Assembly: GCA_963767925.1 (NCBI GenBank)
Contig: CAVYGB010000008.1
Span: 2,816,001 to 2,880,000 of the forward strand
Length of the DNA: 64,000 nt
Source of the DNA: an uncultured delta proteobacterium
GTDB taxonomy: Bacteria > Myxococcota_A > Polyangia > Fen-1088
Direction: 5' to 3'
Shown here: piece by piece, positions 50,298 to 62,895 of the stretch
Layout: every line of letters starts with the position of its first letter
Numbering within the stretch: position 1 is the stretch's first letter
Notes under the pieces: generated by a model
What the model was told of the DNA's origin: nothing
Seen by the model: the letters and a program-made list of their open reading frames with translations, nothing else
Database searches by the model: none
Position numbers and translations under genes: made by a program

Positions 50298-50621
50298 TCA
50301 GTTCAGTTCTTCGTCGCGGGGGGTGCGCTCGGGGGCGGCTGCGGGATCGGGGGCGGTGGTCTCGGAGCTGGGCGCGGCGGCGGTGGCGGCGCCGTCGGGG
50401 CGGGCGCGGCTCAACGACTGGGCGCCGAGGGTGGCGATGGCCTGCGAGACGGTGGCGCTGAGGTCGGCCAGCGCTTCGGGATGGAGGGCCATCGTGATCG
50501 GGCCCACCGTGAGGTAGAGGTCGCCGCAGCCGCAGCGGTCGAGGCGGGTGACAGTTCCGGAGGCGATCACCTCTCGCACGAGGGTCACCTGGTCGCTGTC
50601 CCGGTTCGTGTTGCGCTTCAT
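50298..50621 (-). CDS. Small hypothetical protein with a CxC motif (RCGCGDLYLTVGPIT)
   Basis: RBS GGGAGG before ATG, GC3-rich codons, downstream of a Fur-boxed promoter. Confidence 0.7.
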   Translation of the reverse strand: MKRNTNRDSDQVTLVREVIASGTVTRLDRCGCGDLYLTVGPITMALHPEALADLSATVSQAIATLGAQSLSRARPDGAATAAAPSSETTAPDPAAAPERTPRDEELN

Positions 50622-50805
50622 GGAGCCTCCCTGGAGATCGGGGCGCGGCCGGGGCTGTGCTTCGGTCGCCGCGCTACGTGGCCATACACCCCAGGGCGGC
50701 GGCTCGAGGATCCAGGATGGTTCGGAGGACTGGAATCCCCGGGCCGCCGCCTTTCCCTACACCCGGGCGGCATCCCCTGACCGCCGCCCGCCACAGGAGA
50801 AAGAT

Positions 50806-50833
50806 GATTATGATTTCCACTATCATCTGTCAA
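50806..50833 (-). promoter_or_regulatory. Fur box plus -35 (site 1)
   Basis: Minus strand TTGACA-N3-GATAGTGGAAATCATAATC, 15/19 match to GATAATGATAATCATTATC. Confidence 0.8.
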
Positions 50834-50900
50834 CGAAGAAGAGCGGGGCCCGGGCCTTCAGGCCCCTAAAACGCCGCGGCGGCGGCGGATTTGCCTCAGC

Positions 50901-51395
50901 TCACTTGCGGCGGCGGCAGGGGCCACACAGCCCGAACAGCTCGTGGCGGTGGCGGCGGAGCACGAAGCCGTGTTCGGTGGCGATCTTGTCCTGGAGCTTC
51001 TCGATGGGCTCGCTGAAGAACTCGACGATGGCGCCACAGCGCTCACACACGAGGTGGTCGTGGTGATCGCGCCCGAGGGCCACTTCGTACACGGTCGAGC
51101 CGGAGCCGAAGTTGCGGGCGTCGGCCAGGCCGGCCTGCTCGAGCAGCTTCATCGTCCGGTACACGGTCGCCATGCCCACGGCGGGGTTCTTGGTCCGCAC
51201 CTTCTGCAAGAGGTTCTCGAGCCCGGTGTGCTCGCGGGTGGTCAGGAAGGTGTCGACCACCAGATCCCGGATCTTCGAGGAGTGCAGGCCGTTCTCCTTC
51301 TCGAAGGCGCGCAGCGAATCTTTCCAGCCCTCGACGGTGGTGCCGCGCTCGCGTTCGCTGGCGGCGCCCTTGGACCTGACCGAAGCCCTTGCCAT
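50901..51395 (-). CDS. fur: Fur-family transcriptional regulator
   Basis: VGMATVYRTMKLL, HHDHLVCERCG and HELFGLCGPC. Confidence 0.92.
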   Translation of the reverse strand: MARASVRSKGAASERERGTTVEGWKDSLRAFEKENGLHSSKIRDLVVDTFLTTREHTGLENLLQKVRTKNPAVGMATVYRTMKLLEQAGLADARNFGSGSTVYEVALGRDHHDHLVCERCGAIVEFFSEPIEKLQDKIATEHGFVLRRHRHELFGLCGPCRRRK

Positions 51396-51643
51396 GGCGG
51401 GTGTTTTAGCAGGAATCACCCGACCGCGACACTTCGCTTCCGTGCCGTCACGGGCGCGTCGCTGATCAGGGCCCCTCCCGCGGGCGCCGACCGCCGCCGG
51501 CGGCACCTCCGCAGGCCGGGGTGTGCGGTGAGCCTGGTATTCGCCGCGGGCGCGTGTCGCCGGAGCGCGCTCGCTCCCCTGGGTGGCACGGGCCTGCACG
51601 CGCCAGCGGGGACCGGGGCGGGACCGGGGAGCGCGCTTTTCAG

Positions 51644-51671
51644 TTGACTAGTGATTGTGAAACTCATATTC
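51644..51671 (+). promoter_or_regulatory. Fur box plus -35 (site 2)
   Basis: TTGACT-N3-GATTGTGAAACTCATATTC, 13/19 match. Confidence 0.72.
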
Positions 51672-51679
51672 ATATTTGT

Positions 51680-51955
51680 ACTTGTCTTCGATGAAACCCA
51701 GAACCGGCTCGCCGGGGGTGTGGGGGTTGGACGTTCTCCGCTCGTCCGACTCCGCTCCTTCGGCGCTTCTCCGGAACATCGGCCAGGCGCCCGCGGTCAT
51801 GCGCGGGCTGCAGGCTGGTGAGGCCGGGGCGGACACCGGGTCGAGGGATCCCGGAAGGATGGGCGGGAGAGTGGGCGTGGCGGGGGACGCGAGGGGAAGC
51901 CGCAAGGTGAGCGCGTTCTCCGCCACAGCCCCGGTAGGGGCGAAAGGCAACCACG
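51680..51955 (+). ncRNA. Candidate structured leader RNA or sRNA
   Basis: About 275 nt of non-coding sequence with long hairpins containing plus-strand G-U pairs (51877-51891 with 51912-51926), an internal GCC-GCAA-GGT tetraloop, and a hairpin at 51714-51760. Confidence 0.5.
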
Positions 51956-52219
51956 ATGCCCCACGATGAAGCCGTCAAGGAAGCGAGCAAGGCGCCTGGC
52001 AAGGGCGTCGGGCCGGGCGATGCCCCGCGCAGCGACGCCGTGACGACCGGCGAGGTCCGCTGCGGATGTGGCTCGCTGCTGGCGCGGGTGTCCGCGGCCG
52101 GGGTGGAGCTGAAGTGCCGGCGCTGCCGCCGCTTCATGCTCGTGAGCCTGGGTGCCGACGGCCGCTATGTGGCGCGGGGCAATCTGCTCCAGACCATCAC
52201 CGGCCCCACCGACGACTGA
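51956..52219 (+). CDS. Small Com-like zinc-ribbon protein
   Basis: EVRCGCGSLLARV...VELKCRRCRR follows the Mu Com pattern RC..C.KLL...IEIKC.RC; purine-rich RBS gaaagg. Confidence 0.7.
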   Translation: MPHDEAVKEASKAPGKGVGPGDAPRSDAVTTGEVRCGCGSLLARVSAAGVELKCRRCRRFMLVSLGADGRYVARGNLLQTITGPTDD

Positions 52220-52367
52220 GCCGCGCCGGGGCGACGCCTCGGCCGGAGCATCGCTCACCGACCACAGCAACGGCGTCCGGCGCGAGGTCATGTGTCGCCG
52301 TACGCTCCCTGTCCCATCCCCTGACCGTACCCCCCCGTACAGGGAAACGCCTCCGAAGGGTCAGAGC

Positions 52368-52859
52368 TCAGTTGGCGAAGTCCGCCGGATCGCCGGGGCG
52401 GGGGCTGCTGTTGCGGGCGCGGCAGGCGGAGCAGATGCCGTAGAGCTCGTGGCGGTGGGTGCGCAGCTCGAAGCCGAGCTCCTCGGCGATCTGCTGCTGC
52501 ATCTGCTCGATGGCTTCGCTCTGCCACTCCTCGATGGAGCCGCAGACGGTGCAGATGAGGTGGTCGTGGTGGGCGCGCTCCCGTACGGCTTCGAAGCGGG
52601 TGGGCGCGCCGTCGAAGGCGTGGCGCTCGACGAGCCCCGCTTCTTCCAGGAGCTTGAGGGTGCGGTGGACGGTGGCGAGGCCGATGCGGGGGGCCCGCTT
52701 GCGGGCCAGGGCCACGATCTCCTCGAGGGTGAGGTGGGTCTCGGTGCCGAGGAAGACCTCTGCCACCGCCCGCCGGGAGGTGGTCTCCTTGAGCTGGTTG
52801 CGGTAGCAGAAGCGCTCCCACTCCTCGAGGCGTTGTCGCAGGGCCGCTGGACGTTTCAT
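52368..52859 (-). CDS. fur: Fur-family transcriptional regulator (second paralog in the island)
   Basis: IGLATVHRTLKLL, HHDHLICTVCG and HELYGICSAC. Confidence 0.92.
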   Translation of the reverse strand: MKRPAALRQRLEEWERFCYRNQLKETTSRRAVAEVFLGTETHLTLEEIVALARKRAPRIGLATVHRTLKLLEEAGLVERHAFDGAPTRFEAVRERAHHDHLICTVCGSIEEWQSEAIEQMQQQIAEELGFELRTHRHELYGICSACRARNSSPRPGDPADFAN

Positions 52860-52887
52860 CGCTTGTGGAGGCGGGCGCGCCTCAATT

Positions 52888-52906
52888 GAAAAACAATGTC
52901 ACTTTC
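52888..52906 (-). promoter_or_regulatory. Fur-box-like site upstream of fur (site 3, possibly autoregulatory)
   Basis: Minus strand GAAAGTGACATTGTTTTTC, 12/19 match, in an AT-rich patch. Confidence 0.55.
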
Positions 52907-53001
52907 ATCATCAGATCTGCACCGGGCCGAGGAGAGATGTCAAGGCCTGCGACGGGCTGGGGTTGCGCGCGATCGCGGGATTCGCCTGCTGACCGGCGGG
53001 G

Positions 53002-53031
53002 ACGGGGACGGGGACGCGGACGGGGACGCGT
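53002..53031. repeat. Intergenic hexamer repeat (ACGGGG-like) x5
   Basis: ACG at 53002, 53008, 53014, 53020 and 53026. Confidence 0.65.
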
Positions 53032-53050
53032 CGGACGAGGGGGGAGATGG

Positions 53051-54439
53051 TCAGGGGGTGGGGTCGTTGTGGAAGGGGAGGATCCAGGCGGGGGGGAGCT
53101 GGTCGGCGGCCAGGTCGATCTCGGGATCGACGAGGGGGCGGAGGGGGCGGCCGTTGAGGCTGACCAGGACTTCGGCGTGGACGGCCACGCCGGGGCCTTC
53201 CTTCCGGGCCAGGGCGCGGGCGAAGTCCCGGATCAGGTCGGGCTGGGTGGACATCATCTTGATCTGCAGGGGGGTCAGGTGGTCGCGCAGGCGCACCGGG
53301 CGGCGCTTGCCCGTGCGCCGATCCCGCAGGGTGAAGTCGGCTACCCCCGTCTTCTCCATCAACATGACGTGCCAGGAGAAGCGGTAACCCTGCTCGCTCC
53401 ACAACACGTGGCCGGGGTACAGGTGCTGGCGCAGCGGGAAGAGGGTCTGGAACAGGACGTAAACCAGCAGGGCCGCCGTCGCGAGCCGGCCGAGCGGCGG
53501 CGCCTGTGAGGCCGGGCGGGGCGATGGGGGCACGCGCGGCAGACGAAGCAGGCGAAGCAGGCGGCGGGGCCAGTCGGGCGAGAGGAACAGCAGCGAGCAG
53601 CCGATCATGAAGAAGGGGAACATGCCCAGGCGGAACAGGCGGACGGTCAGCAGGTGGAAGGCCACCGCGGCGATGAGGGCGAAGGGGCGCGAGCGGCGCC
53701 AGAGCAGCAGGAACGGCACGAAGGTGTCGAAGGCGGCGCCGGCCCAGCTCGCGAGGTGCGCGGTCTCGGGGCGCATGAGCAGGGGGCCGAGCAGGGGAAA
53801 GTCGCCGTTGGTGGGCAGCCAGATCCGCAGGGGCAAGGCCTGCAGCAGCCAGTCGCTGCGCCACTTCGCCACGCCGGCGAAGAAGTAGACGCACCCGACC
53901 TGGAAGCGGAGCAGCCCCAGGGTCCAGGCCGGGACGGTGGGCTCGACGCCTCCGCGGCGGAGGGCGTCGAGCGACCAGATGCGCGCGCTCGGCACCACCG
54001 CCAGCAGGGCGGTGAGCAGGGTGACGAGGTAATAGTGGTTGAGGTAGTGGGTCAGGTCGGAGAAGTGTGCGTAGCTGAACAGCAGGCAGAACAGGCCCGC
54101 CGCCGGTCGGGCAAACAGGCCAACCATGAGGCAGGTGGCCAGCAGGCTCAGCAGGCCGAACAGCAGGTACATCGCCGGGGGTGACAAGGGCGCCAGCCCG
54201 GACCACAAGGGGAAGAAGAAGGTCGGATCGACGAAGGCCTCGCGGATCATCCCCTTGGCGGCGTAGCGAATCACCGCCACCAGCAGCAGCGCCCCGAACA
54301 CGACGCGGAAGGCGGCCAGCCCGGCCGCGTCCACCGGCGCGGCCAGACGCCGCCGGAGGCGCAGGAGTCGGCCCGCTCCGGCTCGCGGAGGGTCAGTCCC
54401 CGTCGTTGTCGGAGAAGCCGATGCTGACGCCAAGGGCAT
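53051..54439 (-). CDS. HTTM-domain protein (vitamin K-dependent gamma-carboxylase homolog)
   Basis: LAAFRVVFG, YLNHYYL, VYFFAGVAKW, YRFSWHVML, MSTQPDLI and VSLNGR; multiple TM helices. Confidence 0.9.
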   Translation of the reverse strand: MPLASASASPTTTGTDPPRAGAGRLLRLRRRLAAPVDAAGLAAFRVVFGALLLVAVIRYAAKGMIREAFVDPTFFFPLWSGLAPLSPPAMYLLFGLLSLLATCLMVGLFARPAAGLFCLLFSYAHFSDLTHYLNHYYLVTLLTALLAVVPSARIWSLDALRRGGVEPTVPAWTLGLLRFQVGCVYFFAGVAKWRSDWLLQALPLRIWLPTNGDFPLLGPLLMRPETAHLASWAGAAFDTFVPFLLLWRRSRPFALIAAVAFHLLTVRLFRLGMFPFFMIGCSLLFLSPDWPRRLLRLLRLPRVPPSPRPASQAPPLGRLATAALLVYVLFQTLFPLRQHLYPGHVLWSEQGYRFSWHVMLMEKTGVADFTLRDRRTGKRRPVRLRDHLTPLQIKMMSTQPDLIRDFARALARKEGPGVAVHAEVLVSLNGRPLRPLVDPEIDLAADQLPPAWILPFHNDPTP

Positions 54440-55562: not shown

Positions 55563-57059
55563 CACAGGGAATCCAGGAACATGATGAGCGCCTCCCGATC
55601 GGGCTTGGGCAACTGCTTGTAGGCCTCGCGGCTGCGTTCGGCCTCGCCGCCGTGCCACAAGATAGCCTCGGAGAAGCCCCGCGCGCGACCATCGTGCAGC
55701 AGATAGCGGTGGCGGTTGACCGCCTGCACGAGGCCGAGCCCCCACAGGGGTGGGGTCCGCCACTCGCTGCCCGAGGCCTGGAAGTCGGGTCGCCCGTCGG
55801 CGAGGTCGGGGCCCAGGTCGTGCAGGAGAAGATCGCTGAACGGCCGGATGGTCTGGCCAGACAGCTCGGGCAGCTCGGGGTGGGTCCCGGTCTTCAGCAC
55901 CGGCGTGTGGCAACCCGTGCATCCCAGCTCGGCGAAGACGACCTTGCCCCGCCGGACCTCGGGCACCATGGTGCGGCGACGGCCCGGGACGGCCAGCGTC
56001 GACACGTACGACACGACCGACTTCAGGAAGGACTCGCTGAGCTGCGGCGCCTCGTTGCCCGGCTCCGCGGTGGGGGCGGCCTGGCAGGCCTCCTGGGTGG
56101 AGGTGCAGCTCTCGGCCGGGAACATCGCGGAGGTGATGCCGATGTCGCCGTTGAATGCCCCCGCGGTCTGCTGGCGCAGGTTGGGCTGGTTGGCCTTCCA
56201 GCCGAAACGGCCGAGGGCCGGGCGCTGGTTCTCCTGGTCCCACACCAGGTTGGGGCGCCCCGAGATGCCGTCGCCGTCGAGGTCGTCGGGATCGGCGCGG
56301 GCGAGCAGGGTCTCCTCGGGCACCGCCTCGAGCAAGCCCAGCCCGACCAGGTGCGCGCCCACCCGCGGAGAGATCATCACGTCGGGGGCCAGCGGGCCGT
56401 AGCCCAGGCTCTCCACGGTGTAGCTCGGTTTGCGCAGCGAATACGGCTCGCCGTCGGCGAAGCTGCCCGGCACCTCCTGGTAGGCCACCCGGCCCCGGCC
56501 TTCGCCCGGAACGCCGGGGATCGAGGCCCCCTGGAGCTGCCCGCCATAGCTCGGCTCGGGCAGCGGGGCCGCCGTGCGAGTCGGCGCCAGGCACCGACAG
56601 GCGGAGCAACATCGAGCTGAAGTTCTCGTCCGGCCGATCGGGGGGCCGGCCCCGGCCGTCCCGGATGTGACAGGCCGAGCAGTTCGTCGCGTTGAAGACC
56701 GGCCCCAGCCCGTCCATGCCGGTCACCGAGGCAGGGGCGATGATCCAGCCCCGGTTGAAGATGGCGTTGCCCACGAAGAACTCGTCTTCGTGCTCGGGCG
56801 TGAGGGTCGGGACGGCCTGGGAGAAGGCCTTGCTGCCCGTGTCGAACACGGTCGCCGCACCGCCAGAGAAGGCCTCGCCGGGATCCTCCAGCCAGGAGTC
56901 CGAGCCGGTGTCGGCCGGCTGGGCGTCCGCCTCCAGCGCGTCGGGCGGGTCGGACACTGCGGCATCGAGGAGCGGCGGGTCGCCCGGGGGCGACCCGCCT
57001 TCTCCACACGCCGACGCCGTGAGGACCAGACCTGCGACGAGCGTGGCGGCGATGCGCAT
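55562..57059 (-). pseudogene. Di-heme oxidoreductase (DHOR) lipoprotein with a +1 frameshift at 56565-56568
   Basis: GLGPVFNATNCSACH in one frame; GLGLLEAVP, GRFGWKA, CTGCH, WRTPPLWG and YLLHDGRA in another. Removing one G restores HGGPLPEPSYGGQLQ; may be a sequencing error. Confidence 0.85.
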
Positions 57060-58470: not shown

Positions 58471-58572
58471 TGGCAAGAACCTCATCTGGATATTGGTGGC
58501 ACGGGGCGCTGGGGCCTCTGACCTCCGACCTGTGTTGATGTACGTGGATCTACGTAGAGCCACGCCCGGATC

Positions 58573-58600
58573 GAATATGACGTTCATTTTCAGTTGTCAA
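58573..58600 (-). promoter_or_regulatory. Fur box plus -35 (site 4), imelysin operon promoter
   Basis: Minus strand TTGACA-N3-GAAAATGAACGTCATATTC, 13/19 match. Confidence 0.78.
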
Positions 58601-60880: not shown

Positions 60881-60899
60881 GATTATGATAGTCAGTTTC
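60881..60899. promoter_or_regulatory. Fur box (site 6)
   Basis: GATTATGATAGTCAGTTTC, 15/19 match, 15 bp upstream of the DUF6607 start. Confidence 0.78.
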
Positions 60900-61844: not shown

Positions 61845-62678
61845 TCAGCGGCGGACGTCGACGTCCTTGTCGGTGAAGCGGTAACCCAGCCCGCGCACCG
61901 TCTCGATCAGGCGGCCGGCGGGGCCCAGCTTGTCGCGCAGGCGCTTGATGCAGACGTCCACCGTGCGGCTGCTGACGCTGGGCTGGTATCCCCAGACGGA
62001 GGTGAGCAGCAGCTTGCGCGAGCAGAGGAACCCCTGCGACTGGCAAAAATAGATGAGGAGCTGCATCTCCATCGCCGACAGGGGCACCTCCTGGCCGTTC
62101 ACGTAGGCGTGGCACCCGTCGACGTCGACCTGCAGCGGGCCAAAAGAGAACGAGCGCCGCGGGCGAGGCTCGGCCCCGGCGCTGGCGCTCAAGCCGGCCG
62201 GCGCGGTCAGCCCCAGGACCGGCAGCGCGCCCGAGGCCCGGGCCCGCAGGCGGGCGTCCATGCGCAGCTTGAGCTCGCGGAAGCTGAAGGGCCGGACCAG
62301 GTAGTCCTCGGCCGCCACCTCGTGGTGGGCGATCCAGTCGATCTCGTCGCTCCACAGGTTCAGCATGAAGAAGATGCTGGGCCGCCGCTGCCCCCCGCTG
62401 GCCTGGATGGCCCGCCAGACCTCGAGGCCGGAGATGCCCGGCAGGGTCAGGTCGAGGAGCACGAGGTCGACCTCGAGCTGGGACCAGATGCGCAGGGCCG
62501 CCTCCCCGGAGTCGACGGCGCAGACCTGGTGGCCCCAGTTCTCGAGGTTCTGACAGAGCAGCTTGCGCTGCTCGGCCTCGTCCTCCACCACCAGCACCCG
62601 ATACCACCCGGCCGTCGCCGCCTTGAGGGTCGTGTCGTCGACAAAGACGTGAGCCGTCGCTTCGCTGCGTGCCGCCAT
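61845..62678 (-). CDS. Orphan OmpR/PhoB-family response regulator with an atypical receiver
   Basis: VLVVEDE, DLVLLDLTLPG and winged helix SRTVDVCIKRLRDKL...IETVRGLGYRF; RPF in place of KPF. Confidence 0.88.
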   Translation of the reverse strand: MAARSEATAHVFVDDTTLKAATAGWYRVLVVEDEAEQRKLLCQNLENWGHQVCAVDSGEAALRIWSQLEVDLVLLDLTLPGISGLEVWRAIQASGGQRRPSIFFMLNLWSDEIDWIAHHEVAAEDYLVRPFSFRELKLRMDARLRARASGALPVLGLTAPAGLSASAGAEPRPRRSFSFGPLQVDVDGCHAYVNGQEVPLSAMEMQLLIYFCQSQGFLCSRKLLLTSVWGYQPSVSSRTVDVCIKRLRDKLGPAGRLIETVRGLGYRFTDKDVDVRR

Positions 62679-62689
62679 GGTGGATGGAT

Positions 62690-62717
62690 GATTATGATTT
62701 TCAATTTCGTTTGTCAA
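62690..62717 (-). promoter_or_regulatory. Fur box plus -35 (site 7)
   Basis: Minus strand TTGACA-N3-GAAATTGAAAATCATAATC, 15/19 match. Confidence 0.82.
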
Positions 62718-62895
62718 GGCACCCGCGCGCCTCGAGCTCCGGCGCGAGGCGATCCAGCCGGCGAGGGTGCCCAGCAGCGCCTCGGCGTCCCGGCGGTGCC
62801 TGGTCGTGGAGGCGAGGCCCCGGCGGGGTAACGGCCCCAGGGCGTACTGGCGCCACCCGACGCCGCCCGGGACGCTCCGCCGTCCGGAATCCACG

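Follow-up and report, generated by a model that had tools for sequence, protein, structure and literature searches.

A predicted folded 5' leader between a putative Fur-box promoter and a Com-like zinc-ribbon gene in a GC-rich stretch of bacterial DNA

In Bacillus subtilis, the Fur-regulated small RNA (sRNA) FsrA works with small basic Fbp proteins. In the com-mom system of phage Mu, as described in PMC6483171, the Com zinc finger binds a short hairpin beside the translation-inhibition stem in which the mom start codon is held, and its recognition motif is CC(N)2-3GAG. Here we analyse the DNA upstream of a Com-like zinc-ribbon gene in a stretch of 64,000 nt (64 kb, 71% GC; hereafter the window) from an uncultured delta proteobacterium (contig CAVYGB010000008.1, positions 2,816,001 to 2,880,000), and all positions given are those of the window. 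The region lies in a 560-nt spacer with a fur paralogue (fur1, minus strand) on one side and the 87-codon zinc-ribbon gene (plus strand) on the other. A preliminary description of the sequence had proposed a leader RNA here whose mutually exclusive pairings would act as a conformational switch.

The reading that we prefer, tentatively and at a little under an even chance, is that of an orphan 5' leader which is constitutively folded, lies behind a Fur-controlled promoter and possibly hides the AUG of the zinc-ribbon gene. The minimum free energy (MFE) of 51680-51975 is -161 kcal/mol, and the MFE structure comprises the long hairpin, the 15-bp stem, the 5-bp hairpin and the long-range helix listed in Table 1. 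On the plus strand the leader folds with a z-score of -3.07 and is better than all 200 dinucleotide shuffles, a comparison suggested in the preliminary description, and on the minus strand z is +0.82 with 159/200 shuffles as good. For background, z was computed for 134 windows of 296 nt spread over the 64 kb; its mean was -0.23 (standard deviation 1.07) and its minimum -2.76, and the second-lowest window overlaps the leader. The control half of the spacer, 51396-51640, has z -0.80 on the plus and +0.22 on the minus strand.

Within the leader, the long hairpin reaches z -3.32 on the plus strand (0/200 shuffles) and -0.74 on the minus strand. The 15-bp stem around its GCAA tetraloop hairpin, for which the preliminary description gave the right coordinates and the two G-U pairs, is the longest of 32 stems of at least 12 bp on both strands of the window. 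None of 300 dinucleotide shuffles reaches 15 uninterrupted pairs (maximum 13), and the pair probability of the stem is 0.997 in the partition function of 51680-51990. The twin hairpin made up of this stem and the 5-bp hairpin (51873-51945) folds at -45.1 kcal/mol with z -4.55 on the plus strand. The stem had been described as viable only on the transcribed strand; the preference for that strand holds, but 'only' is too strong, as on the complementary strand the twin hairpin retains a fold of -31.7 kcal/mol (z -2.75). By these computations the predicted leader structure is real, better than chance and strand-specific.

In silico, the start codon of the zinc-ribbon gene would lie in a stem, only marginally beyond chance (see below), with an AUG pairing probability of 0.98 (unpaired probability 0.02 in the full leader), and the Shine-Dalgarno sequence has an unpaired probability of 0.80-0.96. 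Under our preferred reading, a Fur-repressed promoter (-35 at 51644, box at 51653-51671, start near 51680) would produce an mRNA for the Com-like zinc-ribbon protein (ATG 51956). Its leader would take one dominant computed architecture, namely a 142-nt hairpin with CU and GA arms, the 15-bp hairpin followed by the 5-bp hairpin, and the long-range helix. This helix would bury the AUG and leave the Shine-Dalgarno sequence free, and the constitutive effect would be that translation of the zinc-ribbon gene is damped or gated. The conserved 3' hairpin pair may stabilise the transcript, and iron control would be exerted by Fur at the promoter.

The putative promoter consists of two hexamers, TTGACT and TATTCA, spaced by 17 nt within an AT-rich island (51634-51705). 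Operators were scored against the E. coli Fur-box consensus, and, as is typical of a Fur regulon, a predicted box overlaps the promoter, at 51653-51671. Transcription would start at about 51677-51681, and the stretch behind it is very probably a transcribed leader. For comparison, the best 80 zinc-ribbon homologues were kept from each of the genome and metagenome sets, and 166 homologous loci were examined (86 genome, 80 metagenome; L033-L193). In 62/151 homologous loci (41%) the first Cys codon is preceded, at 40-520 nt, by a Fur box of at least 13/19, against 4/134 downstream regions and 8/127 far-upstream regions used as controls (3-6%). Many of the 31 loci with a box of at least 15/19 have the stereotyped sequence cTTGACA...GAAAATGATTTTCAATTTC, and the relatives L017 and L020 share the layout of the window, TTGAC(A/T)-17 nt-TA..(C/G)A, overlapped by a Fur box.

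The distance from promoter to gene is what sets this locus apart. From box to first Cys codon there are 408 nt in the window, whereas the 62 relatives have a median of 108 nt and none exceeds 249, and the long leader is therefore an exception and not a trait of the family. In those loci there are usually 0-40 nt between the box and the first in-frame ATG, so their mRNAs would be leaderless or nearly so; here the gap is about 285 nt. Further Fur-box-like sites (14-15/19) are found at 60881, 62690 and 62911, with AT-rich islands at 52879-52923 and 62675-62723, suggesting that the window contains a cluster of probable Fur-regulated promoters.

Table 1. Coordinates of predicted features at the zinc-ribbon locus (window positions)
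Feature	Position	Strand	Details
-35-like hexamer TTGACT	51644..51649	+	read from sequence
Fur-box-like operator GATTGTGAAACTCATATTC	51653..51671	.	13/19 to E. coli consensus; overlaps spacer and -10
-10-like hexamer TATTCA	51667..51672	+	alternative CATATT 51665-51670; inferred from spacing
Inferred 5' leader	51680..51955	+	about 275 nt; 71% GC
Upstream open frame, 92 codons	51691..51969	+	from ATG 51691 (or TTG 51676); TGA 51967-69
Segment absent from relative X2	51678..51852	+	175 nt; single T instead; joint 51677/51853; includes repeat copy 1
Long-range helix, 5' arm	51705..51729	+	pairs with 51948-51974 (AUG region), probability 0.96-0.99
Long imperfect hairpin	51731..51872	+	CU-rich 5' arm, GA-rich 3' arm; -83.2 kcal/mol
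15-bp stem with two G-U pairs	51877-51891 x 51912-51926	+	encloses GCAA-tetraloop mini-hairpin GCC-GCAA-GGU (51899-51908)
5-bp GC hairpin GCCCC-GGUA-GGGGC	51928..51941	+	probability 0.992 in full leader
Shine-Dalgarno-like AAAGG	51943..51947	+	8 nt before ATG
Com-like CxxC...CxxC zinc-ribbon gene, 87 aa	51956..52219	+	GC3 0.89; codon score +0.30 per codon
fur paralogue 1, divergent neighbour	50901..51395	-	PF01475, E 2.6e-31
fur paralogue 2, convergent neighbour	52368..52859	-	PF01475, E 1.2e-34

The leader DNA had no match in the 88 other genomes of the family, which are also all those of the order in the set searched, or at the 166 homologous loci, and against 60 relatives there were only two GC-rich matches of 35 nt, both in other families (E 7e-5 and 2e-4). 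A tblastn search of the own genome with both leader open reading frames (ORFs) returned only the queries themselves. A repeat or mobile element, such as a miniature inverted-repeat transposable element or a repetitive extragenic palindrome, was considered and rejected; the leader is single copy in the 9.34 Mb genome, and the next best match has E 0.008 over 48 nt. In the same-genus genome G001 (86% complete) the fur1 homologue (77% identity) is adjoined by a TonB-like gene, and no zinc-ribbon gene was found there with the window query.

Pieces of the leader are present in contigs from two public DNA runs (X1 and X2); from runs X3 and X4 only short fragments of the coding region were recovered, no RNA run was among those listed, and stretches without contig cover carry no weight. 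X1 covers 51631-51884 with five changes (51679 T>C, 51720 G>A, 51724 G>A, 51727 T>G and 51852 C>T). When placed on the MFE structure, two of these keep a pair (G-U to A-U and G-C to G-U), one falls within a bulge, one disrupts a U-A pair with its partner beyond the X1 cover, and one precedes the structure. X2 retains 51633-51677 (six changes in 45 nt) and 51853-51945 (five changes in 93 nt), joined as given in Table 1, and diverges beyond 51945; the 15-bp stem is kept. A third related contig of 14.8 kb, which carries the protein entry P0001 as an antisense (minus strand) ORF call, keeps 51698-51836, the core of the long hairpin, with unrelated sequence further upstream, and differs from the window by 1 nt in length at the G5 run 51722-51726. 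Protein searches gave no true homologue for the minus strand ORF; its match, P0001, shifts frame compared with the window.

The leader is therefore modular, as the promoter and the 3' twin hairpin are common to X2, and the long hairpin is common to X1 and the P0001 contig. Repeat copy 1 is dispensable in X2, which lacks the segment that contains it. By sequence comparison, the leader is an orphan, lineage-specific, modular addition to the locus.

The sequence observations behind the proposed switch are accurate. The repeat CGTTCTCCGC occurs at 51732 and 51914 as stated, these being its sole two plus strand copies in the window, and the positions given for GCGGGGGACG (51880), GCCCC (51928 and 51958) and GGGGC (51937) are all exact; copy 1 (51732-51741) lies in the long hairpin and copy 2 (51914-51923) in the 3' arm of the 15-bp stem. 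A genuine conformational switch, where a ligand (metal or haem) or a protein such as the Com-like product shifts the CGUUCUCCGC/GCGGGGGACG and GCCCC/GGGGC/GCCCC pairing and thereby opens or closes the start region, is nevertheless quite improbable. Mutually exclusive pairings do exist in the sequence, but the full leader does not populate the alternative state: in the partition function the pairing of copy 1 with 51880-51889 has a probability of 4e-6 and that of GGGGC (51937-41) with GCCCC (51958-62) one of 2e-4. Enforcing them costs +8.7 and +6.3 kcal/mol respectively, which a ligand could pay. The 10-nt repeat is itself at chance level, with an equal or better local match between the two segments in 19% of 200 shuffles, and copy 1 is not a conserved pairing partner, since its segment is missing from X2. 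The 3' alternative (stem extension plus GGGGC with GCCCC) speaks for a switch in that it is the main state, at 0.62-0.94, for RNA starting at 51873, but only for RNA starting at exactly that position; for RNAs starting at 51853 or 51860 it is at most 0.05 in 7/8 folds and 0.41 in one, and in full-length folds it is at most 0.001. Also in favour, the first 197 nt alone have as their MFE structure a local hairpin whose loop carries copy 1, which could therefore form, and play a kinetic role, during transcription, and Com of phage Mu is a precedent, activating translation via a hairpin beside the stem that hides a start codon (PMC6483171). Against it, the Mu-type motif CC(N)2-3GAG was found 0 times in 51680-51990 with 1.4 expected, and neither of two models brings support: R1, a single-sequence model of the twin hairpin, has a best E of 0.54 in the 166 homologous loci and finds only itself in the own genome, and R2, built on an RNA element that relatives conserve beside their Com-like genes, has no match in the leader. 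A cmscan of 50500-53500 against Rfam with E up to 10 gave three weak matches, none within 51680-51962, in agreement with the earlier statement that no known RNA family is recognisable. Riboswitches have two mutually exclusive folds of comparable stability, which the full leader lacks, and an aptamer that is conserved across lineages and covaries, whereas the leader had no DNA match in the 88 family genomes or the 166 homologous loci searched. A ligand-sensing riboswitch or demonstrable two-state switch is thus not supported by the computed folds. A highly improbable alternative is that the region encodes a Fur-regulated, iron-sparing sRNA of the RyhB, PrrF or FsrA kind, which ends at the twin hairpin and carries CU-rich, anti-Shine-Dalgarno-like stretches, the zinc-ribbon gene being reached by read-through. 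The Fur-box promoter, the two UCUCC-containing repeats with the CU-rich arms, and the very stable 3' hairpin pair are consistent with this, but the CU-rich stretches are paired and not exposed in the predicted fold, and a separate promoter for the downstream gene is not visible. No U-tract follows the hairpins past 51941 and a terminator scan found no site in the leader, which argues against such an sRNA and for which reason an intrinsic terminator or attenuator was also rejected.

Several points weigh against our preferred reading of a constitutively folded leader. Transcription of the leader, like its start site, is itself deduced from sequence, and a strict sigma-70 consensus scan did not call a promoter at 51644-51672. 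The long-range duplex has -34.6 kcal/mol compared to -29.9 +/- 3.0 in shuffles, 7% of 1000 being as good, and the AUG is equally hidden in 4% of 150 shuffled 5' parts, so that its predicted burial exceeds chance only marginally. Strong hairpins may be common in the GC-rich spacers of this genome and need no function, as the nearby spacer 50622-50830 folds equally well (z -3.26). That marginal burial and that second spacer also fit a structure without function, a spacer left when a rearrangement moved the Com-like gene off the head of an operon, whose GC-rich, CU/GA-skewed DNA folds incidentally. The orphan status of the leader in 88 family genomes, the different gene beside fur in G001 and the mosaic nature of the relatives, whose left flanks differ at 51631, 51633 and about 51698, point the same way. 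We consider this clearly unlikely, however, given that the twin hairpin is the most extreme part of the fold, changes less in X2 than the adjacent promoter, and has a 15-bp stem beyond all shuffles. The main rival, unlikely though we hold it to be, is that the region is or recently was translated: the upstream ORF would begin immediately after the Fur-box promoter, and the ribosomes reading it would open up the hairpins and terminate 11 nt beyond the AUG of the zinc-ribbon gene, so that the two translations are coupled; or the ORF would be a decayed N-terminal coding part of the gene; or a one-base homopolymer error in the assembly would split a single frame. GC by codon phase over 51691-51955 is 0.83/0.67/0.65, in the phase of the ORF (permutation p=0.006) and the same in both halves, with p 0.25-0.32 in two control spacers. 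ATG 51691 lies 19 nt past the box, within the distance of 0-40 nt seen in most of the 62 loci and so typical of the family; the X2 deletion is in frame, its net length being 174 nt, and puts an in-frame ATG (51859) beside the promoter, some 13 nt past the -10. The ORF overlaps the start of the zinc-ribbon gene with its stop, by 14 nt, and a one-base change in the G4/C4 runs of 51937-51962 would fuse the two frames; a nearby di-haem oxidoreductase (DHOR) gene is frameshifted at a C4 run, and the source assembly has 13 contigs and is 83.8% complete. Against translation, the codon usage of the ORF is not gene-like, at -0.06 per codon compared to +0.30 to +0.39 for three neighbouring genes. In log-likelihood it has -4.02 per codon, a value shared by the best frames of two non-coding controls (real 88-codon windows have a 1% quantile of -4.10 and a 5% quantile of -3.73, and the low-complexity N-terminus of the zinc-ribbon gene has -3.63). 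No homologue was found among 5.8 billion clustered proteins, and 1.84 billion representatives gave one low-complexity match (E 4.5e-5, an 821-aa protein, six stretches). In the closest relatives the protein begins where ATG 51956 stands, and the 1-nt length difference between the window and the P0001 contig falls inside the ORF; of the four X1 changes within it two are synonymous, which is uninformative.

The zinc-ribbon product has the pattern RCxCGxLLAR...ELKCxRCxR. Its two closest relatives (75% identity) begin with MARDE, aligned with MPHDE of the window protein, which supports ATG 51956 as the start. The Joint Genome Institute (JGI) names several family members 'phage FluMu protein Com', and 2/7 aligned members match PF10122 (Zn_ribbon_Com) weakly (best E 6e-4). 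The window protein itself had no significant match in Pfam or NCBIfam (its sole Pfam hit being PF13717, E 0.37), none by tblastn in 50,697 phage records, and only seven weak unrelated matches among the PDB sequences (best E 0.16); 'Com-like' therefore denotes a remote resemblance. The family was confirmed in 301/344 candidate stretches of genome contigs and 412/601 of metagenome contigs. A fur gene is present in 20/86 genome and 12/80 metagenome loci, usually immediately upstream on the same strand, and feoB in 6/86 and 5/80 respectively. In one relative, L018 (G052:C340), the Com-like gene begins 8 nt past the stop of a same-strand fur gene in an operon-like arrangement. Full-text word searches of a limited literature collection found no paper connecting Com-like proteins with Fur. 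The Com-like zinc-ribbon family is widespread and unstudied, and occurs in Myxococcota, Binatia, Nitrospirota and others.

A different RNA element accompanies this gene in relatives. The sequence CCAGAG is found 3' of the Com-like gene in 74/149 loci in sense orientation compared to 12/149 for its complement, mostly 20-60 nt past the stop, with the consensus AGCGGCCAG[CA]GGTCnnGAACCCAGAGCCCGG. It includes a 3-bp hairpin in which 97.8% of cells are paired, with 24 double-sided changes (alignment A4, 61 loci); 0/500 shuffles were as high, and sliding the partner lowered the pairing to at most 60%. The element was detected neither by a position weight matrix (PWM) nor by the covariance model R2 within the leader or downstream of the zinc-ribbon gene of the window, and a whole-genome search with R2 gave nothing at E up to 1. 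The sequence TGAAACCCAGAACCGG (51692-51707) was tried as an element of this type and rejected, with an ungapped PWM score of -7.7 bits (rank 614/127,934) and no R2 match in the leader.

The best R2 match in the window, obtained with filters off, is at 58493-58536 on the minus strand (18.7 bits, E 0.086). It lies 37 nt behind a Fur-box promoter (TTGACA-17-TATTCG, Fur box 58573-58591) and 23 nt before the ATG of the first gene of the operon imelysin-DHOR-imelysin-HTTM-fur2, within a leader of about 95 nt. The core of the match, GAGGTCAGAGGCCCC, occurs nowhere else in the 9.3-Mb genome, a pattern which was picked after the match had been seen. The Com-like protein may act in trans on this site, which should be taken as a lead and not as a finding. 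In a broader and speculative scheme, to which we give a low probability, the Com-like protein would be an RNA-binding regulator induced by iron starvation, forming a second, post-transcriptional layer under Fur. In most lineages its target would be the conserved CCAGAG hairpin that closely follows the gene where iron-uptake operons begin; here the gene would have become detached from the operon, and the protein would work in trans on the CCAGAG-like element at 58493-58536, its own expression being gated by the twin-hairpin leader and possibly autoregulated.

The neighbourhood has further features of its own. The second fur paralogue is the last gene of the imelysin-DHOR-imelysin-HTTM operon. 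The DHOR gene (PF06537) of this operon is broken into two frames at a C4 run (56560-56640, minus strand), profile positions 7-88 and 125-499 falling in separate frames; it is either a pseudogene or the product of an assembly homopolymer error. The GC-rich spacer 50622-50830 mentioned above (0/200 shuffles as good on the plus strand, z -1.78 on the minus strand) is flanked by a 15/19 Fur box (50806) and by a 107-codon minus strand ORF (50298-50621), whose product has an RCGCG motif and no family match. Two GC hairpins at 50836-50915 (minus strand), just past the fur1 stop, match the Rfam family BjrC68 weakly (21.2 bits, E 0.021, under the gathering score) and are probably the fur1 terminator region.

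Taken alone, the leader is of modest interest, and illustrates that convincing-looking alternative pairings can arise in RNA of 71% GC without evidence of switching. The context outweighs it, as a protein family is tied to Fur boxes, to fur genes and feoB, and then to a covarying RNA element. If Com-like proteins are RNA-binding translational regulators like Com of Mu, they would provide a protein-based post-transcriptional arm of bacterial iron homeostasis, and this locus would be an informative exception where the Com-like gene is separated from its presumed target.

Several described systems can be set beside this locus. Metal-sensing riboswitches of the NiCo/czcD class and other Rfam cis-regulators share the leader position and the metal-related gene, but the leader differs in having no Rfam match, no two-state ensemble and no conservation beyond very close relatives. 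The promoter resembles a classical Fur-repressed promoter in that an AT-rich 19-bp box overlaps the hexamers, as in the homologous loci with a box; it differs in the modest match of what is a predicted operator, and the long leader behind it is atypical for the gene family. The CCAGAG element of relatives belongs to the same gene family and the same Fur context, but stands downstream of the gene with its own consensus and covarying hairpin, neither of which the leader matches. That element resembles the bipartite GAG..CC motif of Mu Com, as given in PMC6483171. In comparison with Mu com-mom, the structured RNA here stands in front of the Com-like gene itself rather than of a downstream target, the Mu recognition motif is missing from it, the homology is remote, and the gene is chromosomal and linked to Fur; the likeness lies in the small four-cysteine zinc-ribbon protein with the pattern RCxxC...KCxRC, and in the stable hairpins directly 5' of a start codon which is predicted to be paired. 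Between FsrA/Fbp and this locus there is no sequence relation, and the terminator scan gives no sign of a separate sRNA here, but both would place a Fur-controlled small basic protein, probably RNA-binding, beside a structured RNA.

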